Positions 33,872 to 51,242 are shown, counted from the stretch's first letter. The stretch is DNA of 64,000 bases from Rhodobacterales bacterium (GCA_045046705.1 JASFZB010000007.1:438-64437), one strand, 5' to 3'. Program-made: numbers and translations. Notes: generated by a model not told the origin, from the letters alone.

Positions 33872-36004
33872 TTATTCTCCCGATTTTGTATGCTTGACCA
33901 ATTCCAGAACTTCTTTTGCCGCTGCCGGTATGTTTGTGCCGGGCCCGAATATTGCCCGCACCCCGACTTGCCGCAAGAAGTTGTAATCATTGGGCGGGAT
34001 CACCCCGCCGCAAATCACGATAATATTGCCGCCGCCCTTGTTTTTCAGAGCATGCACCAGTTGCGGGGCCAGCGTGGTGTGGCCTGCCGCCTGTGACGAG
34101 ATACCAACAACATCGACACCTTTTTCGATGGCATCTATTGCCGCCTCTTCAGGGGTTTGAAACAGCGGCCCCATCTCAATATCAAAGCCAATGTCGGCAA
34201 ACGCCGTGGCAATGACCTTGCCGCCACGATCATGGCCGTCCTGCCCCATCTTGACCACCATCATCGACGGCTTTTTTCCGTATTTAACAGCAAAATCCGC
34301 AACTTCCGCCTGAATATCCAGAAACCCTTGATCGCCTGCGTATGCGGCACCATAGACCCCTGACAAAAGCTTTACCTTGGCCTTATGCCGGCCGAAGGCG
34401 CGTTCCATCGCGTCCGAGATTTCACCCACGGTGGCCCGCGCACGGGCGGAATCCACCGCCAACTCCAGCAGGTTGCCATTACCGCGTGCACCCGCTTCCA
34501 GCGCGCCCAATGTCGCATCGCAAACCGCCGTATCACGGGTTTTTCTAATCTCTTTCAACCGTTTGATTTGCGCATCGCGCACAGCGGTATTGTCGATCTC
34601 GCGCACATCAATTTCGGCATCATCATCAGTTTGAAACTTGTTCACACCAACGATAATATCTTCACCACGGTCCACCCGCGCCTGTTTTCTCGCCGCCGCT
34701 TCCTCAATGGCCAGCTTCGGCATGCCGTCTTCAACGGCTTTGGTCATACCGCCCATAGCATCGACCTGCCCGATCAATTCCCACGCTTTATCGGCCAGTT
34801 CTTTGGTCAGGCTTTCAACATAATACGACCCTGCCAGCGGATCGACCACATTGGTCACGCCGGTTTCATTTTGCAAGATCAGTTGGGTATTTCGCGCCAA
34901 ACGCGCCGCCGCATCGGATGGCAAGGCTATGGCTTCATCATAGCTGTTGGTGTGCAACGACTGGGTGCCGCCCAACACCGCTGACATGGCCTCGTATGCG
35001 GTGCGAATGGCGTTGTTATAGGGGTCTTGTTCCTGCAAAGACACGCCGCTGGTCTGGCAATGGGTACGCAGCATCAAGGACTTTTCCTGCTTCGCGCCAA
35101 ACTCGGTCATGATCCGGTGCCACAACAACCGTGCCGCGCGTAATTTGGCCGCTTCCATAAAAAAGTTCATACCGATGGCGAAAAAGAACGACAGGCGCGG
35201 CGCAAACGCATCCACATCCATGCCGCGTGCCATAGCCGCGCGCACATATTCCTTACCATCCGCCAGCGTGAACGCCAGTTCCTGCACCAAGGTCGCGCCG
35301 GCTTCTTGCATATGATAGCCGCTGATCGAAATCGAGTTGAACTTGGGCATCTCGCGGCGGGTATAATCAATAATGTCCGAGACAATCCGCATTGAGGGTT
35401 CTGGCGGGTAGATATAAGTGTTGCGCACCATGAATTCCTTCAGCACATCGTTTTGAATGGTGCCCGACAGTTTGGCGCGGTCTACGCCCTGCTCTTCACC
35501 GGCCACGATAAAGCTGGCCAGCACCGGAATGACCGCGCCGTTCATCGTCATCGAAACGCTGACTTTATCCAAGGGAATGCCGTCAAACAGGATCTTCATG
35601 TCCTCGACACTGTCAATCGCTACACCGGCCTTGCCGACATCGCCCACAACCCGCTCATGGTCGCTGTCATAGCCGCGATGGGTGGCCAGGTCGAAAGCTA
35701 CGGAAACCCCCTGCTGCCCGCCTGCCAGCCCCTTGCGGTAAAACGCATTGCTTTCTTCCGCCGTTGAAAAGCCCGCATATTGCCGGATCGTCCAAGGGCG
35801 GCCCGCATACATCGTGGCCTTTGGCCCGCGCAGGAACGGGGCCGAACCGGGGGTGGAATTCAATGTATCCAGCCCTTGCAAATCATCCGCCGTATAAAGC
35901 GGCTTTACCGCAATGCCTTCCGGCGTATGCCAAGTCAAATCTTCCAAAGCCCGACCGCGCAGTTCTTTTTCCGCCAGCTTTTCCCAGTCCCGCCGCTTGC
36001 CCAT
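33872..36004 (-). CDS. scpA: Methylmalonyl-CoA mutase (B12-dependent)
   Basis: [42 protein letters not shown] and B12 motif [10 protein letters not shown]. Confidence 0.97.
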
Positions 36005-38004
36005 TATTCAAACTCCATGATAATTTCGTCAACGGCCAGATTGTCACCCACACCGGCGTTGATTTTCGTCACCAGACCATGCTTTTCCGCCCGCAGCACA
36101 TTCTCCATCTTCATCGCCTCGACCGTGCATAAGGTCTGGCCTTCCTGCACTTCGTCGCCCACGGCCACGCTTAGATCTACGATCAGCCCCGGCATCGGGC
36201 AAAGCAGCAGTTTGGACGTGTCAGGGGCTTGTTTTTCAAGCATATATTCAGCTAATTCAGCGCGGCGCGGGGTGTGGATGATAACGTCCGCCGCAGCCCC
36301 CCGATAGCGGATATGATAGCCCGAGCTAACGACAGCCACTTTCAACACCAACGGCACATCATCTATCATGAAGGTCGCCAGTTGTTGCCCCGGCACCCAA
36401 TCACTGGTTACACGATGTTTTGTGCCATCCTTGAAAGTGACGGTAGAGCCGTCGGGGTCTGCATCAATTTTCACGTCAAAACGCGCGTTTTGTACGGTCA
36501 AAACCCAATCCGTGCCAACTTTACGTTCATGATTGTCAAGCCGCCCCGACACCCGCGAGCGGCGAATTTCAGCGACGCGGTACATCGCGGCGCAGGCTGT
36601 TGCAATACGTTGTAACGTGGTTTCATCCAAATCAACCCCGTTAAAACCTTGGGGATATTCCTCTTCAATAAACGCCGTTGTGATCTCGCCGCTCACAAAG
36701 CGCGGGTGATCCATTACCGCCGATAAAAACGGCAGATTGTGACCGATGCCTTCAACCTCGAACCCGTCCAAAGCATTGCGCATCACTTCAATGGATTTTG
36801 CCCGATCAGGCGCCCAGGAACACAGCTTGGCAATCATCGGATCATAAAACATCGAGATCTCGCCACCCTCATAAACGCCGGTGTCATTGCGCACGGCCAT
36901 CACATCGTTGGCAACTTCCACGGGTGGACGGTAGCGCGACAAACGGCCAATCGAGGGCAGAAAATTGCGGTACGGATCTTCGGCATAAAGCCGGCTTTCC
37001 ATCGCCCAGCCGTTGATGCCGATGTCCGATTGCACAAACGGCAACTTTTCACCTGCGGCGACGCGGATCATCTGTTCAACCAGATCAATACCGGTGATCA
37101 GCTCGGTCACGGGGTGTTCGACTTGCAGACGCGTATTCATTTCCAGAAAATAGAAATTTCGCTCACCGTCAACGATAAATTCCACCGTCCCCGCCGAGCA
37201 ATAATCCACCGCTTGCGCCAGGGCACAGGACTGTTCGCCCATGGCTTTGCGCGTGGCTGCATCCAGAAACGGGCTTGGGGCTTCTTCGATAACTTTTTGA
37301 TTGCGCCGCTGGATCGAGCATTCGCGTTCATTAAGATAAACACAGTTTCCATGCTTGTCCCCCAACACCTGAATTTCGATATGGCGCGGTTGGGTGATGA
37401 ATTTCTCGATAAAAATACGGTCATCGCCAAAACTGCTGGCGGCTTCATTCTTTGACAGTTGAAAGCCCTCGCGGGCTTCCGCGTCATTCCATGCCACCCG
37501 CATGCCCTTGCCGCCTCCACCAGCAGAGGCCTTGATCATCACCGGATAACCGATCTGGTTCGATATTTTGACCGCCTCGTCCGCGTCTGCAATCTCGCCC
37601 ATAAAGCCCGGAACTATGGTTACTCCGGCTTCGGCTGCCAGTTTTTTCGATGTGATTTTATCCCCCATCGCTTCAATCGCCCCCGCTGGCGGGCCGATGA
37701 AAGCGACGCCCGCTTTTTCCAAAGCCTGCGCAAACAGTTTATTTTCCGACAAAAACCCATATCCGGGATGCACCGCTTCGGCCCCTGTTTGACGCACAGC
37801 ATCCATCACTTTATCCAGAACGATATAACTTTGTGCCGCAGGCGACGGACCGATATGCACCGCTTCATCGGCCATTTTGACATGCAACGCCTCTTTGTCC
37901 GCATCCGAATAAACCGCAACTGTTTTGATCCCCATCTTCTGGGCCGATTTGATCACACGACAGGCAATTTCGCCGCGATTGGCAATAAGAATTTTCTTAA
38001 ACAT
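36004..38004 (-). CDS. pccA: Propionyl-CoA carboxylase alpha subunit (biotin carboxylase plus biotin carrier)
   Basis: [33 protein letters not shown] and biotin site EAMKME; TAA overlaps the scpA ATG. Confidence 0.96.
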
Positions 38005-38058
38005 ATAAAACACCGTTGTTTGTTATCGGGGTAGATTGGGATTGGGCAGATTTATACC

Positions 38059-38195
38059 AAAAAAAAGGGGCCCTGTCGTAAAAACGAAAGGGCCCCAGTA
38101 GAGGGGAAATGAAAGAGTTTAACCGCATGGAAATGCGGAAAACCTCTTGATCGGGTTTTGCTTTCACCAGCACCGCACCCGACCAGTACGTCATT
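38059..38195 (-). ncRNA. Candidate structured RNA (three hairpins plus U8 tail) upstream of pccA
   Basis: Minus-strand stems GGTCGGGT/ACCCGATC, CCGCAT-TTCC-ATGCGG and GGGGCCCT/AGGGCCCC followed by T8. Confidence 0.55.
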
Positions 38196-38328
38196 GAAGT
38201 TCCAAAAGAGCTTCCTTGAGATTTATGGTAAACCGGTTTTATCGTGCTGCATATGGTGGTGTTCTTTTGCGCCTTGTTTTGGGCAAAAAGCCGCCAAACT
38301 TGGGTTATGTTGCGCGAATACATGCCGA

Positions 38329-38676
38329 TCAGTCCTTAAACACGTCTGGAAAGCTGACCATAGCCCGGCCTACATTGATCTTAAGTAGAGCCGCGTAATC
38401 TTGCGGATCAAAAGAATCGTCGGCAGGCTCAACCTCGCGGCCAAACAGCCAGCTTAAACGCCCCGCATCAAGATTGCCGCGTTCAAAGGGTTGATCCCCG
38501 AAACAATCCCAAAGTGCCTGCATAAAGCCCGCATCGGCAAGGCGGTCGGCAAACCTGCGGTCAGCATAGCGTTCTCGGGCAACCAGTTTGGTTGCGCCTG
38601 CCTTATTGGCACGCCGAATTGTAAACTGAAAATCAGAGCTGGGAAGTCGGGACGGAAACCCGCGATGTTTTAACAT
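38329..38676 (-). CDS. Conserved hypothetical protein of Rhodobacterales pcc clusters
   Basis: 115 aa; RGFPSRLP..FQFTIRRAN and PFERGNLDAGRLSWLFGREV recalled as conserved between pccB and pccA. Confidence 0.7.
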   Translation of the reverse strand: MLKHRGFPSRLPSSDFQFTIRRANKAGATKLVARERYADRRFADRLADAGFMQALWDCFGDQPFERGNLDAGRLSWLFGREVEPADDSFDPQDYAALLKINVGRAMVSFPDVFKD

Positions 38677-38711
38677 GGGCGCCCCCCGAAATTATCTAAC
38701 GGGGCGCAGCC

Positions 38712-38738
38712 CAATACCCCTAAGGGGTATTGTTTTTT
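38712..38738. terminator. Hairpin CAATACCCC-TAA-GGGGTATTG with T6 on the + strand
   Basis: Perfect 9-bp stem directly 3' of the small lipoprotein stop. The U-tract is on the opposite strand, so it may be an mRNA-stabilising stem or an antisense terminator. Confidence 0.5.
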
Positions 38739-38889
38739 AAGATGCTGGCAGTTTTTGTGAAGTGGGTTCTGCCACGATCGGTGTTGGCTCAGGTGCTGCT
38801 GCAGGGCCAGCGGATGAGGATGAATTTGCACATGCAGACAGGCCAAGAGCCGTTGCGAAAAGTGCTGCAATTGTGATTGTTTTAGACAT
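38737..38889 (-). CDS. 50-aa lipoprotein (not in ORF track)
   Basis: AGGAG RBS; MSKTITIAALFATALGLSA-CANSSSSAGPAAAPEPTPIVAEPTSQKLPAS. Confidence 0.8.
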   Translation of the reverse strand: MSKTITIAALFATALGLSACANSSSSAGPAAAPEPTPIVAEPTSQKLPAS

Positions 38890-39099
38890 AGAAAACTCCT
38901 AATTTCAGTGCGATCCAATTCAATTTTTATTTGGAACGTCTTTAGGTTAGCAGTATTTGTTTTGAAAAAATAGAACCTTGATGGGAATCGACAAAAAAAT
39001 CGAAATATTGTGCGTTCCAATGCCCCCCCGACGTTAACAAACCTTGTGGCACCCGCTTGTTTTGAAGGTGATTTATTATTTAGTATCATTGCTATATCC

Positions 39100-40632
39100 C
39101 TACAAAGGCAAATTATCATGCTTGCGCCATGGGTTTTCGATTTTTTTCGATTTAAGACTGGCAAACGCCCGCGAAACCCGCATTCGGGTATTTTGCGGCA
39201 TAATAACCTCGTCAATAAAACCGTTTTCCGCCGCAACAAATGGATTTGCAAAACGGGTTTCGTAATCCACAGTCAGGGCGGCGATTTTCTGCGCGTCCCC
39301 TAGATCGGAACGGTGCAGAATTTCAACCGCACCCTTGGCCCCCATTACGGCAATTTCGGCTGTGGGCCAGGCATAATTCACATCGCCCCCCAAATGTTTC
39401 GGCGACATCACACAATAAGCCCCGCCATAGGCTTTGCGCGTTATTACCGTCACGCGCGGCACCGTGGCTTCGCCAAAAGCGTAAAGCAGTTTGGCCCCGT
39501 GTTTGATCACGCCGCCATATTCCTGCGCCGTTCCCGGCAAAAAGCCCGGCACATCTACCAGGGTCAGCAACGGAATTTCAAACGCATCGCAGAACCGCAC
39601 GAAGCGCGCCGCCTTGCGCGATGAATTTATGTCCAGACAGCCTGCCAGCACCATCGGTTGATTGGCCACGACACCCACAGTCGAGCCTTCAAGGCGAATA
39701 AATCCGGTCAGGATATTTTTGGCAAAATCCGGTTGGATCTCACAAAAATCGCCCTCGTCCGCCAGTTTTTGCACCAGCTCTTTCATGTCATAGGGCGTAT
39801 TGGCATTTTCGGGAACGATAGTATCCAAAGACGGCTCTTTGCGCGCCGGATCGTCGAAAAACGGCCGCACAGGCGGTTTTGATTTGTTGTTCAGGGGCAG
39901 GAAGTCAAACAGGCGGCGCACTTCCATCAGCGCGTCCATATCGTTGTCAAAGGCGCAATCCGCCACCGATGATTTGCTTGTGTGGGTTTTCGCCCCGCCC
40001 AGTTCTTCCGCTGTCACAACCTCGTTGGTCACGGTTTTCACCACATCGGGGCCGGTTAGAAACATATAAGAGCTGTCGCGCACCATAAAGATGAAGTCCG
40101 TCAAGGCAGGCGAATAAACCGCCCCCCCCGCACTTGGTCCCATAATCACACTGATTTGCGGGATCACGCCCGAGGCCTTGATATTGTTTTGAAACACCGA
40201 TGTGTAGCCCGCCAACGAGGCCACGCCCTCTTGTATGCGTGCGCCGCCTGAATCGTTCAACCCGATGATCGGAACGCCATTGCGCATGGCCATTTCCTGA
40301 ACCTTGCAGATTTTCTTGGCGTGGGTGACGGACAGTGATCCGCCGTAAACCGTGAAATCCTGACTAAAGACATAAACCATGCGGCCATTGATCGTACCCC
40401 AGCCGGTAACAACGCCGTCGCCGGGGATATGTTCCTTGTCCATGCCGAAATCCTGGCATTTGTGGGTCACGAACATATCGAATTCTTCGAAAGAACCTTC
40501 ATCCAGCAACACTTCGATGCGTTCACGCGCCGTTAGTTTACCTTTGGCGTGCTGCACGTCAATGCGCCGCGCACCGCCGCCAAGTTTAGCCCCAGCCCTG
40601 CGGTTTTCCAATTGTTGGATTATGTTAGGCAC
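39100..40632 (-). CDS. pccB: Propionyl-CoA carboxylase beta subunit
   Basis: GTG start after GGAGG; [33 protein letters not shown] and RKAYGGAY motifs; 510 aa. Confidence 0.96.
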
Positions 40633-40703
40633 GCGAATTCCTCCCAAAACTTTTCTTGCTATTCTACATGAACGCGCGGGGCTTGAAAGGCAATATTAGT
40701 TAA

Positions 40704-40759
40704 TTTGCAAAACTATAATATTTTCGCTATTGCTATTTGCAAAGTTGCAAAGTTGCAAA
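40704..40759. promoter_or_regulatory. PccR-type operator: TTTGCAAA plus tandem TTTGCAAA-GTTGCAAA-GTTGCAAA
   Basis: Boxes at 40704, 40736, 40744 and 40752 between divergent pccB and pccR; TTTGCAAA is the known ScfR/PccR half-site. Confidence 0.85.
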
Positions 40760-40772
40760 GATTGGACTCGTT

Positions 40773-42185
40773 ATGGCAAACAACAAACTTTATGCAGGGG
40801 TCGCCTTGCGCGAAATTCGCTATGAATTCCGGTTGACCCAAAAACAGTTTGCCGAAAGGCTGAACATTTCCCTACCCTACCTAAGCCAGATGGAAAACAA
40901 TCACCGCCCCATCGCCGCATCCGTGGTTCTGGCACTGGCGCGGGATTTCCATTTCGATGTCTCGAAACTTGCGGGCGGCGACACCCCGCGAATTATAGCC
41001 GATATGAAAGAGGCCCTGGCCGACCCCGCCTTCAAGGATGCCCAGGTCAGTTTGGCGGATTTGCAACTGACCGCCTCAAACGCCCCTACGCTGGCACGGG
41101 CGTTTCTGGATCTGCATCGCACCTACCGTCAGGCACAGGAACGGCTTGCCTCACTAGACGAAGCTTTGGGGCGTGAGGGCGGTTCGGTAACAGTTTCACC
41201 TTGGGAAGAGGTGCGGGATTTCTTTCATTATTGCGATAATTACATTGATGCCATTGACCGATCTGCGGAAAGTTTTTCACATAAATTAGCACAAAGCGGA
41301 CAATCCATACATAATGCCTTGATCCAGTGGCTATCGCACAAACATCACCTGACAGTGCAGTTTGATACAAGCGCCAGCCTGCGGAATTTGGATCATGGTC
41401 GCCGAATTCTTGCTCTGTCAAAAACCGCCAGCAGCCAATCTCAAGCTTTTCAAATGGCGCATCAGGTCGCCCTCTTGGCGCATAATGATTTGATCGAGGC
41501 CAGCTTGGACATGGCGCGTTTCAGCACGCTTGAAGCCCGCGATATATGCAAGATTGGGCTTGCCAATTACTTTGCGGGGGCCACGCTTTTACCCTATGCC
41601 GAGTTTCTGCAAGCCGCACAGGAATGCCGCCATGATCTGGAAATTCTGGCCCTGCGCTTCGGGGCCTCGCTGGAACAGGTCGCACACCGCTTGTCGACCC
41701 TGCAACGCGCCGGGCTTAAGGGAATACCGTTCTTTTTCGTCCGCGTTGATCAGGCCGGCACCATCACCAAACGCCATTCGGCCACCAAGCTGCAATTCGC
41801 CCGTTACGGCGGGGCTTGCCCGTTATGGAACGTACACCGCGCCTTTGAAACCCCGGGGCGGTTCTTGCGGCAACTAGCCGAAACCCCGGACGGGGCGCGG
41901 TACTTCTGTCTGGCCCGTGATGTTTCAAAACCCGCAGGGGCCTTTCACGCGCCCATCAGGCGATATGCCATCGGTCTGGGCTGCGAGGTCAAACATGCAG
42001 GCGCGTTGGTCTATGCCGACGATATGGGCATCAAGAACGCCCAAGCCTTTGAACCCATCGGAATTTCGTGCCGGATTTGCGAGCGTGACAACTGTCACCA
42101 AAGATCAATCCCGCCCTTGGAGCGCCGCCTGAAGGTTGATCACAACGCACGCGGTGTGTTGCCCTATTCGCTTTCGGAAAAGTAA
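40773..42185 (+). CDS. pccR: ScfR-family (XRE-IrrE-ScfR) regulator of propionyl-CoA assimilation
   Basis: XRE HTH (SLPYLSQMENNHRP), SPWEEVRDFFH, GLANYFAGA, ITKRHSAT and CPLWNVH motifs, C-terminal GISCRICERDNCHQRS; divergent from pccB. Confidence 0.9.
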   Translation: MANNKLYAGVALREIRYEFRLTQKQFAERLNISLPYLSQMENNHRPIAASVVLALARDFHFDVSKLAGGDTPRIIADMKEALADPAFKDAQVSLADLQLTASNAPTLARAFLDLHRTYRQAQERLASLDEALGREGGSVTVSPWEEVRDFFHYCDNYIDAIDRSAESFSHKLAQSGQSIHNALIQWLSHKHHLTVQFDTSASLRNLDHGRRILALSKTASSQSQAFQMAHQVALLAHNDLIEASLDMARFSTLEARDICKIGLANYFAGATLLPYAEFLQAAQECRHDLEILALRFGASLEQVAHRLSTLQRAGLKGIPFFFVRVDQAGTITKRHSATKLQFARYGGACPLWNVHRAFETPGRFLRQLAETPDGARYFCLARDVSKPAGAFHAPIRRYAIGLGCEVKHAGALVYADDMGIKNAQAFEPIGISCRICERDNCHQRSIPPLERRLKVDHNARGVLPYSLSEK

Positions 42186-42243
42186 CTGGACGTTTGTTTG
42201 CAGCATGATAAGTCTGGGCACTGTCACCATTCAGGCCCACTTC

Positions 42244-43470
42244 ATGCACGCAAACTTTCCAAAATCGCGTTACCTTGACCGCGCAACGCCGCCCCATATC
42301 ACCACATTGGTTCTTATAGCGGCCCTTGGGTCGGTCACCCTAAGCATCTTTCTGGCCTCGTTGCCCGAAATGGCGCGCTATTTCCATGTGCCTTATGCGC
42401 TGATGCAACTGGCAATCACCGGCTATCTGGCCCTGACAGGCGTGGCGCATTTACTGCTCGGCCCGATCTCGGACCGGTTCGGCCGCCGCCCAGTCATGCT
42501 GGTGTCCATTCTACTGTTCATTGCCGCCACCATCGGGGCAGCCAGTGCCTCTGGTTTTGAAATTTTCATGGTGTTCCGCACCCTACAGGCGGTCATTGTC
42601 AGCGGCATGGTGTTATCGCGCACCATTGTGCGTGACCTTGTCGCCCGGGAACGCGCTGCCAGCATGATCGGTTATGTCACCATGGGCATGTCTTTGGCCC
42701 CGATGCTGGCACCGCCTTTTGGCGGTTATTTGGCGGAGCATTTCGGCTGGCAGTCTAATTTTCACTTTCTGGCCCTGTTCGGCGCATGCGTATTTGTGGT
42801 CTGCTGGTTTGATCAAGGCGAAACCAACCGCTATAAAACGGCCAGTTTCAAACAACAATTGCGCGCCTACCCGAAACTTTTGACCTCGCGCAGGTTTTGG
42901 GGCTACGCCCTGACCGCCGGTTTTACCGCAGGCACTTTCTTTGCCTATCTGGGCGGGGCACCTTATGTCGGCAGCGAGATCTACGGCCTGACCAGTTCTG
43001 AAATAGGGCTTTATCTGATGCTTACCCCGATCGGGTATCTTATCGGTAACGGCATATCGGGCAGATTCAGCAGCACGCTTGGCATTTATAAAATGATCGG
43101 TATCGGTATTCTGATCCCGCTTCTGGGCATGCTGGGGGCGTTGGCCCTTACCCTAGCGGGTTGGGATCATCCGCTGGCGTTTTTCCTGTTCACCATCACC
43201 ATCGGTCTGGGCAACGGCATGACCTTGCCCAATGCAACCGCAGGTATGCTGGATGTCCACCCCGAGCTTGCAGGCTCGGCTTCCGGACTGGGCGGGGCTT
43301 TGATGACGGTCGGCGGGGCGGCGTTTTCCACTTTATCGGGGTCTTTGCTTAACACCCACAGCGGCCCGTTGCCGCTAATTTTATGTATCATTCTGGCCGC
43401 AGTTTTCGCACTTTTAGCGGCACTTTATACATTCCAAATCGAAAAACAGATCGAAAGAGCGGGCGCATGA
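42244..43470 (+). CDS. Bcr/CflA-family MFS drug efflux transporter
   Basis: GPISDRFGRRPVML, RTIVRDL and APMLAPPFGG motifs; 12 TM. Confidence 0.88.
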   Translation: MHANFPKSRYLDRATPPHITTLVLIAALGSVTLSIFLASLPEMARYFHVPYALMQLAITGYLALTGVAHLLLGPISDRFGRRPVMLVSILLFIAATIGAASASGFEIFMVFRTLQAVIVSGMVLSRTIVRDLVARERAASMIGYVTMGMSLAPMLAPPFGGYLAEHFGWQSNFHFLALFGACVFVVCWFDQGETNRYKTASFKQQLRAYPKLLTSRRFWGYALTAGFTAGTFFAYLGGAPYVGSEIYGLTSSEIGLYLMLTPIGYLIGNGISGRFSSTLGIYKMIGIGILIPLLGMLGALALTLAGWDHPLAFFLFTITIGLGNGMTLPNATAGMLDVHPELAGSASGLGGALMTVGGAAFSTLSGSLLNTHSGPLPLILCIILAAVFALLAALYTFQIEKQIERAGA

Positions 43471-44285
43471 AGCTGCGACGCTTTCTAAAACGCCTGATAT
43501 ATGCCGCCCTTGTTGTTTATCTTGCGGCCTTTGCCCTTGTCTGGTTCGCCCGCACTGCCCTGATCTACCCGTTTGATCCCGCCCATATCACGCCGCGCCA
43601 AGCGGGGGAGCCGCGCTTGATCGAGAAAACCCTGACAACCGACGATGGTGCCAACCTGATTGTCTGGGAACGCCCCGCAAAGGGGCGCAAAGCGACATTG
43701 GTTTATTTCCACGGCAACGCGGGAAATCTGGCGGGGCGCGCCCAGAGGTTTAGCCACCTGAGTGATCGCGGCTACGGGATTGTGGCACTGGCTTACCGTG
43801 GCTCGGGCGGCAGCACGGGGCGGCCATCCGAAGCGGCCCTTAGCAAAGACGCTATTTTATTGCGGCGCAAGCTGCCGCTGCTTTTAGGTCAGGCTATAGT
43901 GGGAAAAATCATCTATTACGGCGAAAGTCTGGGCACAGGGGTTGCGGTGAAACTGGCCACGACATACCCGCCCGACGCCCTGATACTGGAAGCCCCCTAC
44001 ACTGCCATCGTTGATCTGGCCGCACGCCAGATGCCGTTCTTTCCGATCCGCGCAGTTTTGGATCAGCGGTGGGAAACAAGCAGGTATATCACACAAGTGA
44101 ACAGCCCCACTCTGATTATACACGGCACAGATGACCAAGTCGTGCCCTATGCCATGGGCAAAACCCTGTTTGCCCTGTCGCCGGCCAAAAACAATGTGAT
44201 GAAAACACTGCCGGGGGCAGGCCATTTGCCGGCGTTCTCGGGGCCGGGCCAAACCGCAATTTACCTCTTTATTGACGGGCTTTAG
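43467..44285 (+). CDS. Membrane-anchored alpha/beta hydrolase (BEM46-like)
   Basis: YFHGNAGN, YRGSGGS, YGESLGTG and IIHGTDD motifs; N-terminal TM. Confidence 0.85.
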   Translation: MKLRRFLKRLIYAALVVYLAAFALVWFARTALIYPFDPAHITPRQAGEPRLIEKTLTTDDGANLIVWERPAKGRKATLVYFHGNAGNLAGRAQRFSHLSDRGYGIVALAYRGSGGSTGRPSEAALSKDAILLRRKLPLLLGQAIVGKIIYYGESLGTGVAVKLATTYPPDALILEAPYTAIVDLAARQMPFFPIRAVLDQRWETSRYITQVNSPTLIIHGTDDQVVPYAMGKTLFALSPAKNNVMKTLPGAGHLPAFSGPGQTAIYLFIDGL

Positions 44286-44874
44286 TCGCGCCTTGATCTG
44301 CGGCCAACTGCAAATGCAGATATTCGGACACAATCGAAATCGTTTCCAAACGCTCGGTGCTGGATTTTTGCAAGGCTTGCCGGATGTAAAACCCGTCAAT
44401 GATTGACGCAAGCCCGTTGGCAATGCGTTGCGCCTTGGCTTGATCCGTCAGTTTCGACAAATCATACACCAGGTTCGATTGCAATCGCCGCGCATAAACC
44501 TGCAATAGCCGATGCGCCGCTGTCGAGTTTTGTGCCAAAACATAGAAGGTCAACCAAGAGGCAATGACCTCGGGCTTGAAATTATCGGGGTGGAAACTGG
44601 CAGCAATGATCGCATCAAGCCGCTCCATCGGGGTTTTGGCCTTGGCCAGCTCGACCTTCACATGCGCCCCGAAAAGCACCAGTATCGAGCGCATTGCGGC
44701 CAGCAGGATTTGATCTTTGCTGCCGAAATAATGATGCGCCAAAGCACTGGAAACACCCGCTCTTTTGGCAATTTTTCCGACCGTGACATCCAGCGAGCCA
44801 ACCTCGCCGATCTCGCAAATCGCGGCCTCTATCAGGGCTTTGCTGCGTATCGGTTTCATTCCAAGTTTGGGCAT
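44269..44874 (-). CDS. betI: Choline-responsive TetR repressor BetI
   Basis: MPKLGMKPIR, VTVGKIAKRAGVSSALAHHYFGSK and YARRLQSNL motifs. Confidence 0.93.
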   Translation of the reverse strand: MPKLGMKPIRSKALIEAAICEIGEVGSLDVTVGKIAKRAGVSSALAHHYFGSKDQILLAAMRSILVLFGAHVKVELAKAKTPMERLDAIIAASFHPDNFKPEVIASWLTFYVLAQNSTAAHRLLQVYARRLQSNLVYDLSKLTDQAKAQRIANGLASIIDGFYIRQALQKSSTERLETISIVSEYLHLQLAADQGATKARQ

Positions 44875-44912
44875 GTTCATCCTTAAAATTCGGCTGGCTA
44901 AATCTGCAAATG

Positions 44913-44937
44913 TTTATTGACTGGTCAGTCAAATAAA
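44913..44937. promoter_or_regulatory. BetI operator TTTA-TTGACTG-GT-CAGTCAA-ATAAA
   Basis: Perfect 7-bp arms between divergent betI and choX. Confidence 0.8.
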
Positions 44938-45000
44938 TCTTGCATTTTAATTGCCTGTGTTTTCTATTACCCTAGGAACATGAAAAATGGGAGATTAAAA

Positions 45001-45936
45001 ATGCACTCACTGAAAACCACTGCTTCTGCCGTTGCGGTGCTATGCGCACTCGCAACTGGGGCCAATGCCGCGGGCTGCGATAAAGTCATCTTTTCCGATG
45101 TGGGTTGGACAGATATTACCTCGACAACTGCCGCCACAACCCTGGTGCTGGATGCTTTGGGCTACGACACCAAGATCAAAGTTCTTTCCGTGCCTGTGAC
45201 CTATGCGGGCATGGCCGGTGGCGATATAGATGTTTTCCTTGGTAACTGGATGCCAACGATGGAAGGCGACATTGCCAAATACCGCGATGAAGGCTCTGTG
45301 GACACGATCGGGGCCAACCTTGAAGGTGCCAAATACACCTTGGCCGTTAATGAGGCCGCTGCCAAACTGGGCATCAAGGATTTTGCCGATATTGCCAAAG
45401 CCAAAGATGCTCTGGACGGTAAAATCTACGGCATCGAGCCTGGCAATGACGGCAACCGTTTGATCCAGGACATGATCGACAAAAACGCTTTTGGCCTGAA
45501 AGGTTTCGAAGTTGTTGAAAGTTCCGAACAGGGCATGCTGGCGCAGGTCAAACGGCTGGACAAGAAAAACCAACCGATTGTGTTTCTGGGCTGGGAACCG
45601 CACCCGATGAATGCCAACTATAATATGTCCTATCTAACCGGTGGCGACGATTATTTTGGCCCCAATCTGGGCGGCGCAACGGTCTATACAAACACTCGTG
45701 CAGGTTATGTCAATGAGTGTAAAAACGTTGGGGCGCTTCTGAAAAACCTGAAGTTCAGCCTGGCCATGGAAAATGAAATCATGGGGGCTATTCTGGACGA
45801 CGGTGAAGACCCCAGCAAAGCAGCCAAAACCTGGCTGACTGCGCATCCCGATGTTTTGGCCCCGTGGCTGGCAGGTGTGACCACCAAAGACGGTGGCGAT
45901 GCCATGGCTGCGGTCAAATCATCCTTGGGCCTGTAA
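45001..45936 (+). CDS. choX: Choline ABC transporter binding protein
   Basis: FSDVGWTDIT, DVFLGNWMP, YGIEPGNDGN, FLGWEPHPMN and DDYFGPN motifs. Confidence 0.93.
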   Translation: MHSLKTTASAVAVLCALATGANAAGCDKVIFSDVGWTDITSTTAATTLVLDALGYDTKIKVLSVPVTYAGMAGGDIDVFLGNWMPTMEGDIAKYRDEGSVDTIGANLEGAKYTLAVNEAAAKLGIKDFADIAKAKDALDGKIYGIEPGNDGNRLIQDMIDKNAFGLKGFEVVESSEQGMLAQVKRLDKKNQPIVFLGWEPHPMNANYNMSYLTGGDDYFGPNLGGATVYTNTRAGYVNECKNVGALLKNLKFSLAMENEIMGAILDDGEDPSKAAKTWLTAHPDVLAPWLAGVTTKDGGDAMAAVKSSLGL

Positions 45937-46005: not shown

Positions 46006-46842
46006 ATGCACTGGCTGACAGACACGAAAATTCCCATCGGCAAAACAGCGAAATATATTTTCGATTGGCTACAAACCCATGGGGAAACGTTTTTCGACCT
46101 GCTTTCGACCGCTCTGGAACATTTGATCGAATCTTTTCTATGGGTGCTGCAAACCCCGCACCCCCTGATCGTAATTGCGGTTTTTACCCTTATTGCCTGG
46201 TTTTTACAAAAATCATGGAAAATATGCCTATTGGTGGTTTTGGGCCTGCTTTTGATCGTCAATCAGGGCTATTGGGATGAGACCACGGAAAGCCTGACAT
46301 TGGTGTTGTCGGCCTGTGTGGTTTGCATGGGGGTTGGGGTGCCGATCGGCATATGGATCGGCCACAAGCCGAAACTATACGCCTATCTCGCGCCGGTTCT
46401 GGATCTGATGCAAACCCTGCCAACCTTTGTCTATCTGATCCCGGCGATTGTGTTTTTCGGCATTGGCATGGTGCCGGGCCTGATCGCCACGGTGATTTTC
46501 GTGCTGCCAGCCCCTATCCGCCTGACCTATCTGGGCATCTCGCAAGTGCCCGAAGACCAGTTGGAAGCCGCCGACAGTTTTGGTTCTACCAAGCGGCAAA
46601 AGCTGTTCAATGTGGAACTGCCCAACGCCATGCCGCAGATCATGACAGGGCTAAACCAGACCATCATGCTATCGCTTTCCATGGTGGTGATCGCCGCCCT
46701 TGTGGGCGCCGACGGTTTGGGCGTTCCAGTTGTGCGGGCGTTGAACTCGGTGAACACCGCCCTTGGTTTTGAAAGCGGCTTTATCATCGTTATCGTCGCC
46801 ATTCTGCTTGACCGTGTGTTGCGTATCCGGACGGATAAATAG
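46006..46842 (+). CDS. choW: Choline ABC transporter permease
   Basis: KIPIGK, PVLDLMQTLPTFVYLIP, EAA loop and GLNQTIMLSLSMVV motifs. Confidence 0.92.
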   Translation: MHWLTDTKIPIGKTAKYIFDWLQTHGETFFDLLSTALEHLIESFLWVLQTPHPLIVIAVFTLIAWFLQKSWKICLLVVLGLLLIVNQGYWDETTESLTLVLSACVVCMGVGVPIGIWIGHKPKLYAYLAPVLDLMQTLPTFVYLIPAIVFFGIGMVPGLIATVIFVLPAPIRLTYLGISQVPEDQLEAADSFGSTKRQKLFNVELPNAMPQIMTGLNQTIMLSLSMVVIAALVGADGLGVPVVRALNSVNTALGFESGFIIVIVAILLDRVLRIRTDK

Positions 46843-46845
46843 CCG

Positions 46846-48318
46846 CTAACGCATCACAAACGGGTCGGCCATCGGTTCATCCGATGTGTTGATCCACACC
46901 GTGCGCGTGCGCGAATAGTCCAGCATCGTATCCAGCCCGCTTTCACGGCCATAGCCGGTATCCTTGTTGCCGCCAAAAGGGGCAACCGGCGAGATCACCC
47001 GCCATGTGTTAATATAGGTAATACCGCCTGCCAGCTTGCGGGTCATGCGCATGCCGCGCGCCAAATCACGGGTAAACGCCCCGCCCGCGTAATGAAACCT
47101 CGAGGCATTGGCCAAGGCCACCGCCTCGTCCTCGGTTTTGAATGAGCGCACGCTCAAGACCGGGCCAAACAGTTCTTCATCAAAAACATCAATACCATCC
47201 ACATCGCAAGACACGATTGTCGGTTCAAAATAATACCCCTTGTCAAAGCCTTCGGGGATTTTACCCCCGGTCAAAACCCTGGCCCCTTTGGCAACGCTTT
47301 TTGCCAGTAAATCCTGAATGCGGTCGCGTTGGCGGCGGGTGCAAAGCGGCCCCATTTCCGTGGCTTTATCCAAAGGGTCACCGATTTTGATGGCTTGAGC
47401 TTTTTCAATCAGCATATCCAGAAACGCATCGCGCACGCCCTCTTGCACAATCAGCCGTGATCCCGAAACGCAGGATTGTCCGGCAGCGGCAAAAACCCCC
47501 GCCACAACCCCGTTGACGGCACTTTCCAAATTGGCATCGTCAAACACCAGAACCGGTGCTTTACCGCCCAGCTCAAGCGTCAAAAGCGCAAAGTTGTCCG
47601 CCGTATTGCGCACCACATTGCGCGCCGCGTCGACCCCGCCGGTAAAGGCCACCCGCGCCACTTTCGGATGCGAGGTCAACCGTGCGCCGCAGGTGGCCCC
47701 ATACCCTGCAATAATATTCACCACGCCGGGTGGAAACCCCGCCTCATCGACCATTTCGGCGAATTTCAACACGGGGCACGGGGCATCTTCGGAAGCCTTG
47801 ATCACGATGGTATTGCCCATGGCAAGGGCAGGGCCAAGTTTGACGCAGGTCAAAAATATCTGGCTGTTCCAAGGCACCACGGCGGCCACAACCCCCAATG
47901 GTTCACGCATGGTCATGCAAATCATATCGGGCTTGTCATGCGGCAGGGTTTGGCCGGTGACCTTATCGGCCAAGCCGCCGTAAAACCGCAGATAATCCGC
48001 CATATAGCGGCATTGGGCGGCGGTTTCGCGCAGGATTTTACCCGAATCGCGGCTTTCCACTTCGGCAAATTCCCCGGCGCGGCGTTCCAGAATATCGCCC
48101 AAACGGTGCAGGCATTTGCCCCGCGCCGTCGGTGTCATCATCGCCCATGGGCCATCACTAAAAGCGCGATGTGCAGCCTCTACGGCGCGGTCAACGTCAC
48201 CTTCTGTTGCTTCGGGGACAGAGGCCCAAACCGTTTCATCGCTTGGGTTCACGCAGTCGATGCGCCCGCCCTTAACCGCGTCACAAAAGCCGCCGTCAAT
48301 ATAAAGCTGATATGTCAT
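46846..48318 (-). CDS. Aldehyde dehydrogenase, TgnC-like
   Basis: IVPWN-like VVPWNSQIFL, LELGGK, AGQSCVSGSR, EELFGPV; C-terminus SDEPMADPFVMR matches TgnC as recalled. Confidence 0.85.
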   Translation of the reverse strand: MTYQLYIDGGFCDAVKGGRIDCVNPSDETVWASVPEATEGDVDRAVEAAHRAFSDGPWAMMTPTARGKCLHRLGDILERRAGEFAEVESRDSGKILRETAAQCRYMADYLRFYGGLADKVTGQTLPHDKPDMICMTMREPLGVVAAVVPWNSQIFLTCVKLGPALAMGNTIVIKASEDAPCPVLKFAEMVDEAGFPPGVVNIIAGYGATCGARLTSHPKVARVAFTGGVDAARNVVRNTADNFALLTLELGGKAPVLVFDDANLESAVNGVVAGVFAAAGQSCVSGSRLIVQEGVRDAFLDMLIEKAQAIKIGDPLDKATEMGPLCTRRQRDRIQDLLAKSVAKGARVLTGGKIPEGFDKGYYFEPTIVSCDVDGIDVFDEELFGPVLSVRSFKTEDEAVALANASRFHYAGGAFTRDLARGMRMTRKLAGGITYINTWRVISPVAPFGGNKDTGYGRESGLDTMLDYSRTRTVWINTSDEPMADPFVMR

Positions 48319-49052
48319 CGGGTTTCCTTTGCCAGTAAATCCATGATCAATCCTGCCAGTTCCGCGGGCTTTTGCATAGGCACCATATGGGCGGCATCCT
48401 TGAAGATAGCACAGTGTGCATTCGGCAACTCAGCCGCCATTTTTTCAGCCATCGCGGAGGTTGAACCGGCATCAAGACCGCCAGTCACCACCAGCGCGGG
48501 CACCTTGATGCTTTTCAAACGGCCCGTTATTTGCGCCCCCTCATGGGCAAAAACCCTATAACTGCGCATAAACTGATCGGTGTCGTTGGTTTCCAGACAC
48601 CTACGGGTTTGTGTCAGATATTCAGGATATTTAACGGCAAATTCAGGCGTAAACCAGCGCGCAAGGGCCGCGTCGATCATCACTTGCGGCCCCCCGGTTT
48701 GCGATTGCCTGAACCGCGTTTGCACTGCCGACATTTGTTCGGGCGTGCGGTCATAAACCCCGTTTAGCAAGATCAGATGCGAAATTCTTGCGGGATTTGT
48801 CAAAGCCGCCCATTGCGCAATCATAACCCCCAGAGAAAAGCCGCAAAGCGCGAATTTGTCCAAGCCTTGCCCATCCGCATAGCCCATGAGATCTGCCACA
48901 AATCCGTCAAGGCTGGCAGGCCCTTCCCAGTTCGGCCCCTCCCCGTGTCCGCGCAAATCATAGGCGTAGGTGGAAACATCGGGCAAAACGACCCTCAGCG
49001 GCAGCCAAATCGTGTGGTCCAGCCCGACCCCGTGCAACAGGATCAAATCCAC
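48315..49052 (-). CDS. Alpha/beta hydrolase, TgnD-like
   Basis: LHGVGLD, nucleophile elbow GFSLG, TGGLDAGS and AAHMVP motifs; couples to both neighbours. Confidence 0.8.
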   Translation of the reverse strand: MDLILLHGVGLDHTIWLPLRVVLPDVSTYAYDLRGHGEGPNWEGPASLDGFVADLMGYADGQGLDKFALCGFSLGVMIAQWAALTNPARISHLILLNGVYDRTPEQMSAVQTRFRQSQTGGPQVMIDAALARWFTPEFAVKYPEYLTQTRRCLETNDTDQFMRSYRVFAHEGAQITGRLKSIKVPALVVTGGLDAGSTSAMAEKMAAELPNAHCAIFKDAAHMVPMQKPAELAGLIMDLLAKETR

Positions 49053-50095
49053 TATGCAGCCCCTTTGAAGTTCGGCATGACTTCTTCGATGAACAGATTA
49101 AGACTTCGTTTTTTATCCGCAAAGCTGGCCCCGCTATCAATCCAGTAACTATATTCGTCATAGCCCATCGCCTGATAGGTTTTAATGCGCGCAGTCACCT
49201 GATCCGGCGTGCCGACCACGTTGTTTTTGCGCATGTTTTCAGGGCTGAACATCTCAATCGCGGCCATTTCATCGGAACTGAGTTCCTTGATATGACCGTT
49301 GATAATAGGACGTTCATTTCGAAACCAAGCCCCGAAGGTACAGTAAAACCGCGATAAATCTTGCGCGTCTTGTGCAATATCCGCTTCATTCGAGCCCACA
49401 GCAGTGTGGTTCAGAAGCATTATCCTGGGGGATTTATCTGGGTTTTCCATTTTGGCTTCACGAAACTTCAGCATCAGGTTTTCCACCTCGTCATCGCCAT
49501 TCCAAAGCGGTGTTACCTGCACATGACAATCGTTTTTCATGGCAAAATCAAACGAATTCGGATCGCGTGCCGCCACCCAGACCGGCGGGCCACCAGCCTG
49601 TTTCGGTTTTGGTACGGCGGTGGATTTCGGGAACGCGTAATGCTTGCCCTGCATTTCATAATCCCCCGCCCAAAGGGCCTTGATCGCTGGCACTATTTCA
49701 CGCAAATGCTCGCCTGCGGCCCAGGCATCCATGCCGCCGCCAAGACGGTCGTATTCAAAACTATAGGCCCCGCGTGCAATACCAAGCTCCAGACGACCGC
49801 CGGTAATCAAATCGGTCATCGCCGCTTCCCCCGCCAGCCTGATCGGATCCCAGAACGGGGCAACAATGGTGCCGGTACCCAAACGGATACGCTCGGTTTT
49901 GCCGGCCAGCTCGACCAGCAACAGGAACGGGTTCGGCGAGATGGTGAAATCCATCGCATGATGTTCGCCAGTCCAGACGGTTTTCATACCGCCCGCTTCG
50001 GCCATCAACGCCAGCTCGATAAACTGGTCATGCAATTCCTGATAAGTGTCTTTCGTAGACAAACGTTCCATGTGAACGAAAAGCGAGAAATCCAT
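49052..50095 (-). CDS. Luciferase-like flavin monooxygenase, TgnB-like
   Basis: FSLFVHMER, WTGEHHAMDFTISPNPF, GIARGAYSFEY, WVAARDPNS, FGAWFRNER and YDEYSYWID match Acinetobacter TgnB as recalled. Confidence 0.85.
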   Translation of the reverse strand: MDFSLFVHMERLSTKDTYQELHDQFIELALMAEAGGMKTVWTGEHHAMDFTISPNPFLLLVELAGKTERIRLGTGTIVAPFWDPIRLAGEAAMTDLITGGRLELGIARGAYSFEYDRLGGGMDAWAAGEHLREIVPAIKALWAGDYEMQGKHYAFPKSTAVPKPKQAGGPPVWVAARDPNSFDFAMKNDCHVQVTPLWNGDDEVENLMLKFREAKMENPDKSPRIMLLNHTAVGSNEADIAQDAQDLSRFYCTFGAWFRNERPIINGHIKELSSDEMAAIEMFSPENMRKNNVVGTPDQVTARIKTYQAMGYDEYSYWIDSGASFADKKRSLNLFIEEVMPNFKGAA

Positions 50096-50096
50096 C

Positions 50097-50132
50097 TTAG
50101 ACCCCGCCGCGTATGTTTGATAAATGGCGCAT
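50097..50132 (-). other. 11-codon upstream ORF (MRHLSNIRGGV) ending 1 bp before the TgnB-like start
   Basis: Strong GAGGAGG RBS 7 nt before ATG; TAA-G-ATG junction. Confidence 0.5.
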
Positions 50133-50249
50133 ATATCGCCCTCCTCGTGTTACCAAAAAGAACGACACACACCTTTTTACGCTCACTGCGTGTCCACTTG
50201 AGCTTGCGCATTTGGCGCATTAATCGCGATTCGGTCAAGTCGTGGACGA

Positions 50250-51242
50250 TTAGGGTTTACTGAAAACCCCCGTCAATGCCCGCTTCATGATCCCCGTCAC
50301 TGACGGTTTAGGCCTTATGTGAAACCGCATTGGCCGACACAGCTCCATCGCGGCCACACCGACACGCACGGTCAAAGCCCCGTTGATAACCCCTTCACCA
50401 AAACGGCGCGACAGTTTCGAGATAACACTGCCGCCCGCAATCGAGCCTATCATATCGTCGCCAATAGCCACCGCCCCTGTCGCCACCAGATGCGCGGCAA
50501 CCGCACGCATCAAACGCAATGAGCCAAAAAATCCTGACCGCCCGCCATAAATCCCGGCAATGCGGCGGATCATGCGCATGTTTACGCTCAAGGCTACAAC
50601 CACATCGGCCAGTGCCAGCGGAATTATTGCCGTCGCCGTTGCCACCTGACGGCCAGAGGTTTCAATGACGCTGACCGCCTGCTTGTCCAGCTCGGCCACA
50701 ACGGTGCTTTCCACCAAGGCCATATGCGCATCCGCATCCAGTATGTCTGTCGCCTGATCCTTAAGCTTGCCAAACGCCCAGCGCAAATCCTGCCTGCCCT
50801 GATAAAGCTGCGCCAGTTGATCGGAATATCTGCGGGCTGCGGGTAAATCATCGCGATCAAAAACCAGGCGGGCAGTTTGGCGTAAAGCATCCATACGCCG
50901 CAACCGCGCAAAACCTGCAAGTTCGCGGCCCGCGTAAAACAACAGCCCCAGAACAAACAAGCCGGTCAGGGCAAACGCCAGCCGCCCCAGCCAAAGATTG
51001 CGCGCCATCATGCCGGTCACAAAATCCCAAAATGCCAGCGAAATCACGAAACCGGCAAGAGCCACCAGCACGGTGGTGAAAAGCCGCCCCATATAGGACG
51101 GTTTTTGTACCGCCACGCGGGGCTGCGCAAGCTGCAACGCATTTTGTCCCTCTTCGGGCACCGCAGGCACATCCGCAGGGCTTGGCCGCACATTCTTTTT
51201 GTTGGCCGGTTCCAGCGCGATCACAACAGATTTTTTCTTCAT
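50250..51242 (-). CDS. ycjF: YcjF-family (TIGR01620) membrane protein
   Basis: QVATATAIIPLALADV, IAGIYGGRSG and RRFGEGVINGALTVRVG motifs. Confidence 0.9.
   Translation of the reverse strand: MKKKSVVIALEPANKKNVRPSPADVPAVPEEGQNALQLAQPRVAVQKPSYMGRLFTTVLVALAGFVISLAFWDFVTGMMARNLWLGRLAFALTGLFVLGLLFYAGRELAGFARLRRMDALRQTARLVFDRDDLPAARRYSDQLAQLYQGRQDLRWAFGKLKDQATDILDADAHMALVESTVVAELDKQAVSVIETSGRQVATATAIIPLALADVVVALSVNMRMIRRIAGIYGGRSGFFGSLRLMRAVAAHLVATGAVAIGDDMIGSIAGGSVISKLSRRFGEGVINGALTVRVGVAAMELCRPMRFHIRPKPSVTGIMKRALTGVFSKP

Follow-up and report, generated by a model that had tools for sequence, protein, structure and literature searches.

A rearranged trigonelline-type gene cassette in marine Rhodobacteraceae and its pseudoknot RNA leader, a candidate riboswitch

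Results

We examined a 64,000-nt (64-kb) stretch of DNA from a Rhodobacterales bacterium (GCA_045046705.1 JASFZB010000007.1:438-64437), hereafter the window, and focused on a three-gene cassette that resembles part of the trigonelline (tgn) cluster and on the RNA leader that precedes it. Coordinates are window positions unless a locus number is given, and we read the host of the cassette as a marine Rhodobacteraceae bacterium. All three genes lie on the minus strand. The first (49052-50095, -) encodes a TgnB-type luciferase-like monooxygenase (LLM) of 347 aa (Pfam PF00296 Bac_luciferase, 8.8e-54), the second (48315-49052, -) an alpha/beta hydrolase of 245 aa, designated D′ (Pfam Abhydrolase_6/_1, 1.8e-18), and the third (46846-48318, -) a TgnC-type aldehyde dehydrogenase (ALDH) of 490 aa (Pfam Aldedh, 6.8e-155). 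The LLM and hydrolase genes overlap by 1 bp in the sequence TAGTG, where the LLM stop codon TAG meets the hydrolase start codon GTG, and the hydrolase and ALDH genes overlap by 4 bp in ATGA, which contains the hydrolase stop and the ALDH ATG. The open reading frames (ORFs), the Pfam matches and the junctions all agree with the three coupled genes given in a preliminary description of this DNA.

As a reference, we used a locus from Acinetobacter soli (L080), where exact protein look-up supplied Tgn names assigned by NCBI. The order at this locus is a divergent GntR gene, AA_synth, an alpha/beta hydrolase, a PF01613 reductase, an LLM, an ALDH, an NCS1 permease, an unknown gene, another ALDH and CMD. 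The NCBI names are the reductase component and the oxygenase component of a flavin-dependent trigonelline monooxygenase, (Z)-2-((N-methylformamido)methylene)-5-hydroxybutyrolactone (MFMB) dehydrogenase and (E)-2-((N-methylformamido)methylene)succinate (MFMS) hydrolase. The 90% cluster of the A. soli TgnD includes the A. baylyi ADP1 protein CAG69310.1. In A. baylyi ADP1, the trigonelline cluster is reportedly arranged as tgnR / tgnFDABC-P-E (Perchat et al. 2018), and its pathway is said to lead from trigonelline to MFMB and MFMS, and then to methylamine, formate, CO2 and succinate semialdehyde.

By sequence, the window LLM clearly belongs to the TgnB family and the ALDH to the TgnC family, as the preliminary description had proposed. 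The LLM is 59% identical to A. soli TgnB over 344 aa (E 2e-150, full length), and we predict that it is the ring-opening oxygenase component. The ALDH is 52% identical to A. soli TgnC over 489 aa, with a C-terminal DPFVMR tail in both proteins, while its identity to a TgnE-like succinate semialdehyde dehydrogenase (SSADH) is 31%. The catalytic motifs ELGGK and GQSCV are present in the ALDH, as is the nucleophile elbow GFSLG in the hydrolase.

A genome-collection scan with the window LLM as the query yielded 80 loci (given L-numbers), and the set was later enlarged by look-ups of homologues and a metagenome pattern scan. About 60 of the 80 have the canonical order F-D-A-B-C, most with an adjacent GntR gene, and these come from Rhizobium, Sinorhizobium, Mesorhizobium, Paracoccus, other Rhodobacteraceae, Paraburkholderia and Acinetobacter. 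In the LLM tree, the window protein falls into a nine-locus clade (SH-aLRT 100) that adjoins the canonical FDABC clusters and consists of Neptunicoccus, Amylibacter and two metagenome-assembled genomes (MAGs). The order is B-(F)-D′-C at all nine loci of this window clade, and none has an adjacent reductase. TgnF stands between B and D′ in four Amylibacter loci, where it is 56-58% identical to A. soli TgnF; it is present in the sister loci L002, L003, L004, L021, L086 and L088-L090, and missing from the window, L001, L005 and L006. The order B-(F)-D′-C without a reductase is the standard form of the Neptunicoccus/Amylibacter clade at every locus recovered, and TgnF has been lost repeatedly within this clade. 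Far from being an isolated case, the cassette is standard across a clade and has a parallel form in which the LLM is a different one. About 20 related loci contain the gene trio, with variable flanks and 66-95% protein identity, and because of this recurrence the arrangement is not a product of chance. Upstream of the LLM the genes vary by locus (ycjXF, pntAB, a polar-amino-acid ABC system, or accD-folC-acs), indicating that the cassette is a mobile, self-contained unit.

Searches of the whole window with blastp (1e-8) found no homologue of TgnA, TgnF, TgnE, the NCS1 permease TgnP or the GntR regulator TgnR, and a hidden Markov model (HMM) built from 70 TgnA homologues found no PF01613-like ORF in the same 64 kb. 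This upholds the earlier remarks that tgnA, tgnE, tgnF and a transporter are missing here; for the regulator, it upholds them as regards the GntR type. Such losses could mean that the cassette is a decaying, non-functional tgn remnant without reductase, TgnF or regulator, an explanation that we consider the least probable of all those weighed here. The ORFs are intact and overlapping, the level of protein identity across the related loci given above speaks against decay, as do the catalytic motifs of the hydrolase and ALDH, and the leader and its small ORF, described below, are under strong constraint. Reductase-less cassettes are also common in the parallel family with a different LLM. Further tgn-like loci without an adjacent reductase are L026, L041 (Hellea), L010, L013, L050 and L052, which have the order F-D-B-C or B-D only and from which the RNA motif is absent as well. 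The cluster has therefore lost tgnA several times.

Upstream of the LLM gene is a leader of about 110 nt. By alignment it is nearly invariant in the nine clade loci, despite unrelated flanking genes and despite an identity of only 66-70% between the window LLM and those of L006 and L007. Within it lies a pseudoknot RNA core of 41 nt (50163-50203, -; 45-50 nt with flanks) that is conserved upstream of tgn-like cassettes. The covarying P1 hairpin GCUCA/UGAGC (50199-50203 with 50181-50185, -) closes the loop AGUGGACACGCAG (50186-50198, -), and the linker GUAAAAAGG separates P1 from the pseudoknot 3′ strand GUGUGUC (50164-50170, -), which is able to pair with the loop segment GACACGC. Further upstream, a putative promoter (50210-50238, -) consists of a -35 element TTGACC (50233-50238), a 17-nt spacer and a -10 element CCAAAT (50210-50215). 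A scan with an E. coli-type promoter consensus made no call at this site; CTTGAC(A/C)GAATCG and CCAnAT are kept across the window-clade loci despite different upstream genes, and we infer from this sequence that the site is probably the promoter. If so, the transcript would start within a few nucleotides of P1.

Downstream of the core, the minimum free energy (MFE) and centroid structures from RNAfold suggest an expression platform (50129-50172, -; z = -2.8). In this prediction, the anti-Shine-Dalgarno strand GUGUGUGUCGUUCUUUUUG (50154-50172, -), which overlaps the pseudoknot 3′ strand, pairs with CGAGGAGGGCGAUAUAUGC (50129-50147, -), which contains the Shine-Dalgarno (SD) sequence and the AUG of an upstream ORF (uORF). 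The GGUGUG strand is likewise predicted to pair with the SD region in the MFE folds of L006, L007, L081, L093, L094 and L103. The uORF (MRHLSNIRGGV*, 50097-50132, -) has 11 codons and ends 1 nt short of the LLM ATG. At all 15 readable window-type loci it spans exactly 11 codons, with interior residues that vary and with 1-3 nt between its stop and the LLM ATG, while L006 and L007 have no uORF and the same SD serves the LLM directly. The preliminary description regarded the regulator as missing. This was correct for a GntR-type tgnR, which the window does not contain, but it overlooked the covarying pseudoknot leader, the predicted SD-sequestering helix and the coupled uORF, as well as a syntenic betI.

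The palindrome AAACCAGTAAACTAGTTTAGTA, with the core TAAACTAGTTTA, occurs about 45 nt upstream of the -35 element of the LLM promoter in L001, L002, L004, L005 and L021, and is found also in L084-L086, L088 and L090. It is absent from L003, L087 and L089, and in the window it is degenerate (CAGTAAACCCTAATCG, about 50250-50265). A protein might bind this palindrome as an operator, either of the cassette or of the divergent ABC transporter genes.

Two covariance models were used for the RNA motif, one of which is R2. Together with the metagenome pattern scan and the look-ups of homologues, they located the motif in front of tgn-like cassettes at about 27 loci from Alphaproteobacteria, Gammaproteobacteria and Acidimicrobiales. 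In every case it is on the coding strand, preceded by a promoter-like site and followed by the first cassette gene, and its core is near-invariant in all nine B-D′-C loci despite their different upstream genes. We aligned 18 distinct motif sequences (alignment A4). In this alignment, P1 is 100% paired with three doubly changed pairs, and the pseudoknot is 91% paired with 10 compensatory cells, for a total of five pairs and 13 cells changed on both sides. None of 500 shuffles reached the observed covariation score, and slid controls scored far lower. As examples, P1 reads CCUCG/CGAGG in L094 and GCUGA/UCAGC in L102a, and two pseudoknot pairs change from A-U to G-C in L092b, L093, L094, L098, L101, L102a and L102b. 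Covariation thus supports the fold of the leader RNA, and the pseudoknot 3′ strand overlaps the predicted anti-SD strand.

Searching Rfam 15 (4227 models) gave only chance-level matches (int-alpA, E 1.5; sX7, E 0.75, elsewhere in its locus), and a blastn comparison of the leader with 72,556 plasmids produced no match. In the roughly 60 canonical FDABC loci sampled, where a GntR gene is usually adjacent, the motif was detected by neither covariance model. A literature search on a trigonelline riboswitch or on tgn in Amylibacter found nothing relevant.

The operons downstream of the motif are of three kinds: window-type cassettes, other TgnB-type cassettes (L082 and L091), and cassettes with a different LLM subfamily, LLM′, which shares 24-26% identity with TgnB or with the LLM of the window. 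In the last kind, LLM′ is followed by TgnF (at several loci), a D′-type hydrolase (40% identical) and a TgnC-type ALDH (61%). LLM′ cassettes were found at L081 and L092-L103, attributed to Kiloniellales, Parvibaculaceae, Rhodospirillaceae, a gammaproteobacterial MAG and Acidimicrobiales. Most are without a reductase, and L081, L092 and L093 start with their own PF01613 reductase gene. The same RNA leader precedes 8 of the 13 LLM′ loci; R2 run with filters off found no motif in L095-L097, L099 or L100 (L096 is AT-rich). Tandem copies of the motif occur upstream of LLM′ cassettes in L092 (5023-5111) and L102 (3316-3404), and in both cases the pseudoknot contains A/U in one of the two copies and is G/C-rich in the other. 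LLM′ proteins are 386-392 aa long (e.g. L092:5746-6915) and form a large family, with 1977 matches at E<=1e-30, and the LLM′ loci L094 and L100 adjoin genes for a Rieske oxygenase, a creatinase-like M24 protein, Amdase and PhyH. We suggest that the LLM′ cassettes may open the ring of the same or a related osmolyte by a second route, as yet uncharacterised.

One explanation of these results is that the leader is structured and yet no metabolite riboswitch. It could bind a protein or a small RNA, or serve as a constitutive stabilising or coupling element, with induction left to a trans regulator such as a BetI-family repressor. Most copies show extreme sequence conservation even inside the stems, the predicted +1 and the inverted repeat GCTCA-N13-TGAGC overlap, L002 and L004 have BetI orthologues immediately downstream of the ALDH, and a TetR_C_6 regulator is divergent from the motif-less LLM′ cassette of L097. 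We nevertheless find this explanation rather unlikely. The double changes in P1 and the compensatory changes between loop and downstream strand (A-U to G-C at two pairs, and the 10 cells above) are signals at the level of RNA, and the tandem copies, like the predicted alternative helices that sequester the SD, are features typical of riboswitches. As for a BetI-type regulator, the motif occurs in loci without any BetI (L006, L091-L094, L098, L101-L103), and the window BetI scores as a true choline-BetI equivalog beside a true ChoX. The regulator gene at L097 (4085-4687) encodes a TetR protein with a BetI-type C-terminal domain (TetR_C_6), and thus parallels the BetI orthologue beside the window cassette.

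That BetI-family TetR repressor gene (44269-44880, -; TIGR03384 222 bits, cut-off 201; NF001978 230 bits) is followed in the window by choX, for a choline ABC binding protein (44917-45936, +; TIGR03414 460 bits, cut-off 379), and choW, for a choline ABC permease (46006-46842, +; TIGR03416 438 bits, cut-off 363). ChoX matches Sinorhizobium meliloti ChoX (2REG) at 457 bits, with GWTD, NWMP, AKYT, GWEP and PGNDGN aligned and conserved. No ORF with Walker-A and LSGGQ motifs, as expected for choV or another ABC ATPase, was found anywhere in the window. The choXW pair is present in the window, L001, L003 and L089 and absent in L002, L004, L021 and L090, and the BetI orthologues of L002 and L004 (82% identity) are at loci without choXW. 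ChoXW had been suggested as a possible route for pyridinium-betaine uptake. We consider a role as substrate importer unlikely, because ChoX is an orthologue of the choline-binding protein and choXW is missing from several sister loci. BetI as regulator of the operon was down-weighted, since BetI and ChoX score as true choline orthologues and the RNA motif occurs without BetI. From these scores, betI-choXW is best read as an ordinary choline unit, loosely syntenic with the cassette and probably neither its importer nor its main regulator.

This neighbourhood also bears on whether the trio itself might belong to choline/glycine-betaine metabolism, with the ALDH as a betaine-aldehyde dehydrogenase (BADH). 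BetI and ChoXW adjoin the cassette, and the best NCBIfam match of the window ALDH is indeed BADH, at 486 bits. However, this score falls far short of the 668-bit cut-off and is on a par with the 471 bits of A. soli TgnC, no betA is present, sister loci that keep the trio are without choXW, and the closest characterised-family relatives of the trio are Tgn proteins. We therefore regard the choline explanation as very improbable.

The choX and choW genes converge on the ALDH gene. The gap from the choW stop (46840-46842) to the ALDH stop (46846-48) is 3 nt, which leaves no space for terminators, so the convergent transcripts must overlap. On the other side, the genes upstream of the cassette are ycjF and ycjX, followed by truA and one for a MATE pump. 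Beyond betI, a Bcr/CflA-type MFS gene and then a second alpha/beta hydrolase gene (43383-44285) occupy 42136-44285, and this pair is syntenic with the cassette in L002, L003 and L021 (67-71% identity). Next to them, a gene for a ScfR-type short-chain acyl-CoA regulator (40737-42185) is divergent from a propionyl-CoA carboxylase pair, consisting of the biotin carboxylase/biotin carboxyl carrier protein subunit (36004-38013) and its carboxyltransferase (39100-40647). The propionyl-CoA carboxylase/ScfR region (36004-42185) looks like ordinary housekeeping context.

Discussion

We propose that the trio is a lineage-specific, rearranged trigonelline core that carries out ring cleavage of trigonelline or a close analogue, with the reductase encoded elsewhere and with riboswitch-like control of translation, and we would give this reading slightly better than even odds (a probability of roughly 0.55). 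By homology, the TgnB-type LLM would take FMNH2 from a reductase encoded elsewhere and open the pyridinium ring, and the TgnC-type ALDH would oxidise the resulting lactol or aldehyde. The divergent alpha/beta hydrolase would then strip the N-formyl group, and the product would break down to methylamine, formate, CO2 and succinate semialdehyde. Expression would be set by the 5′ leader RNA and not by a GntR-type TgnR. We imagine that the leader acts as an H-type pseudoknot aptamer-like domain, the 3′ strand of which doubles as an anti-SD. Once the pseudoknot has formed, presumably with ligand bound, the SD of the 11-codon uORF would be freed, and ribosomes that end at the uORF stop, 1 nt before the LLM ATG, could reinitiate on the operon.

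Trigonelline would be the most parsimonious substrate, with a related compound as the less likely alternative. In its favour are the 59% identity between the LLM and TgnB, the abundance of trigonelline in seawater, and the fact that another member of the Rhodobacteraceae, Ruegeria pomeroyi, can grow on it (PMC8269262). Within the N-methylpyridinium-betaine catabolism put forward in the preliminary description, trigonelline is thus favoured through TgnB and TgnC homology, and homarine, which had also been named as a candidate, is unlikely because a separate and different operon, homABCDER, serves its catabolism (Ferrer-Gonzalez et al. 2026; PMC13236597).

Several observations weigh against our proposal. 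The window LLM clade sits on a long branch away from the canonical TgnB clade, so a shift in substrate is possible. The hydrolase is 28% identical to TgnD of A. soli and to that of A. baylyi (CAG69310.1), and in the hydrolase tree D′ belongs to a clade that is sister to canonical TgnD and also includes PcaD-annotated proteins, CMD-fused proteins and actinobacterial hydrolases. From these sequences, it is unproven that the window hydrolase is a TgnD orthologue, so that of the Tgn trio first proposed, the TgnB and TgnC assignments are the supported ones. No reductase was located in the 64 kb, and one borrowed from elsewhere in the genome is an assumption. Most motif copies are nearly identical, and the covariation is carried by about eight divergent sequences. 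Finally, the same leader precedes LLM′, which is only 26% identical to TgnB, so its ligand need not be trigonelline.

Some of these points can be answered in part. Reductase-less cassettes are the rule in the window clade and common in the LLM′ family, which makes a borrowed reductase reasonable. The closest PDB entry to the hydrolase is PcaD (2xua, 78 bits), about as near as TgnD, and a 76%-identical relative carries a Joint Genome Institute (JGI) KEGG orthology (KO) label as MFMS hydrolase. The N-terminus of D′ is about 20 aa shorter than that of TgnD; truncation or frameshift was ruled out, because all members of the D′ clade are 242-248 aa long, and the short N-terminus is therefore native. 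The simplest interpretation of the fixed position of D′ between B and C is that it has a TgnD-like role, as a predicted deformylase/hydrolase acting on the ring-opened product.

The same points could also mean that the enzyme logic is retained while the substrate is a different N-heterocycle or pyridinium compound (N-methylnicotinamide, a derivative of nicotinate or some other algal alkaloid, for example), and that the leader senses this compound. The long LLM branch, the different hydrolase clade and the leader shared with another LLM family would fit, as would the ALDH being only 52% identical to TgnC. In addition, canonical FDABC clusters exist in other Rhodobacteraceae (L039, L046, L067, L072), and the variant could be a paralogous function. 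Against this, 59% identity to an oxygenase of a characterised family usually preserves substrate, TgnF (in sister loci) and the TgnC tail are retained, and the KO call for the hydrolase relative is MFMS hydrolase. Homarine, as one such substrate, has a separate pathway with the FAD-domain protein HomA and the predicted peptidase HomC (PMC13236597). Although it deserves to be kept in mind, we find a different substrate doubtful, and prefer trigonelline or a close analogue.

The enzyme cassette is a rearranged relative of the known trigonelline pathway, and the leader is its most interesting new feature. We consider the leader a credible candidate for a new riboswitch class. The genes associated with it are catabolic, and an ON switch is therefore expected. 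Tentatively, and at somewhat less than even odds, we go further and suggest that this class senses trigonelline, or the shared substrate or an early intermediate of the cassettes, and switches on the translation of ring-opening LLM systems of at least two kinds that are not orthologous, in Alpha- and Gammaproteobacteria and Actinobacteriota, acting in the window clade via the coupled 11-codon uORF. We know of no riboswitch for a pyridinium or quaternary-amine osmolyte, and the leader would be the first.

In the exchange of carbon and nitrogen between phytoplankton and bacteria, trigonelline and other N-methylated osmolytes related to it are major currencies. Here, a marine Rhodobacteraceae lineage has a stripped-down form of tgn with no dedicated reductase in the cassette and a different hydrolase, and searches that demand the full tgnABCDEF set would miss cassettes of this type. 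The leader is short and conserved across phyla, and it links two unrelated oxygenase families to one signal. If it binds the pathway substrate, that substrate would be directly identified, so the shared leader makes the question of what these abundant marine LLM cassettes degrade experimentally tractable. If our suggestion is true, the leader would also add a new riboswitch ligand class and a compact natural sensor.

Among known systems, the homarine operon homABCDER is likewise a marine catabolic operon for an N-methylpyridinium carboxylate with an ALDH-like enzyme, and its Cobetia version has a betaine-type transporter (PMC13236597). Its products are N-methylglutamate and glutamate, HomA has an FAD-binding domain, HomB is a partner protein and HomC is a predicted peptidase (PMC13236597). 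The window cassette instead has an LLM and an alpha/beta hydrolase as identified by Pfam, which set it apart from the Hom proteins as these are described.

The tgn cluster of A. baylyi and A. soli is much closer. It shares with the window cassette the LLM (59%), the ALDH (52%, with the same tail) and a hydrolase of the PcaD-like group, and TgnF (AA_synth) is kept in the sister loci of the window cassette. The chemistry predicted from these likenesses would also be the same, with pyridinium ring opening, oxidation and deformylation. The two differ in gene order, F-D-A-B-C in the tgn cluster and B-(F)-D′-C in the window clade. In addition, the tgn cluster has a PF01613 reductase, a GntR regulator, an NCS1 permease and an SSADH, none of which adjoins the window cassette. 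The window hydrolase belongs to another clade than TgnD, with the low identity and the missing N-terminal residues noted above, and control in the window cassette would involve an RNA leader and coupled uORF, unlike in canonical tgn loci.

For the leader, the nearest parallels are SAM-II and preQ1-II, small H-type pseudoknot riboswitches that act on translation. Like them, the leader is a short domain in which a hairpin loop pairs with a downstream strand, and it lies in the 5′ untranslated region of the genes of one pathway. The downstream strand of the pseudoknot is shared with an SD-sequestering helix in SAM-II and preQ1-II and is predicted to be so in the leader, and tandem arrangements occur in both cases. 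The leader differs from SAM-II and preQ1-II in having no resemblance to any Rfam 15 model, and in that the leader of the window clade is predicted to act on an 11-codon uORF translationally coupled to the first enzyme gene.

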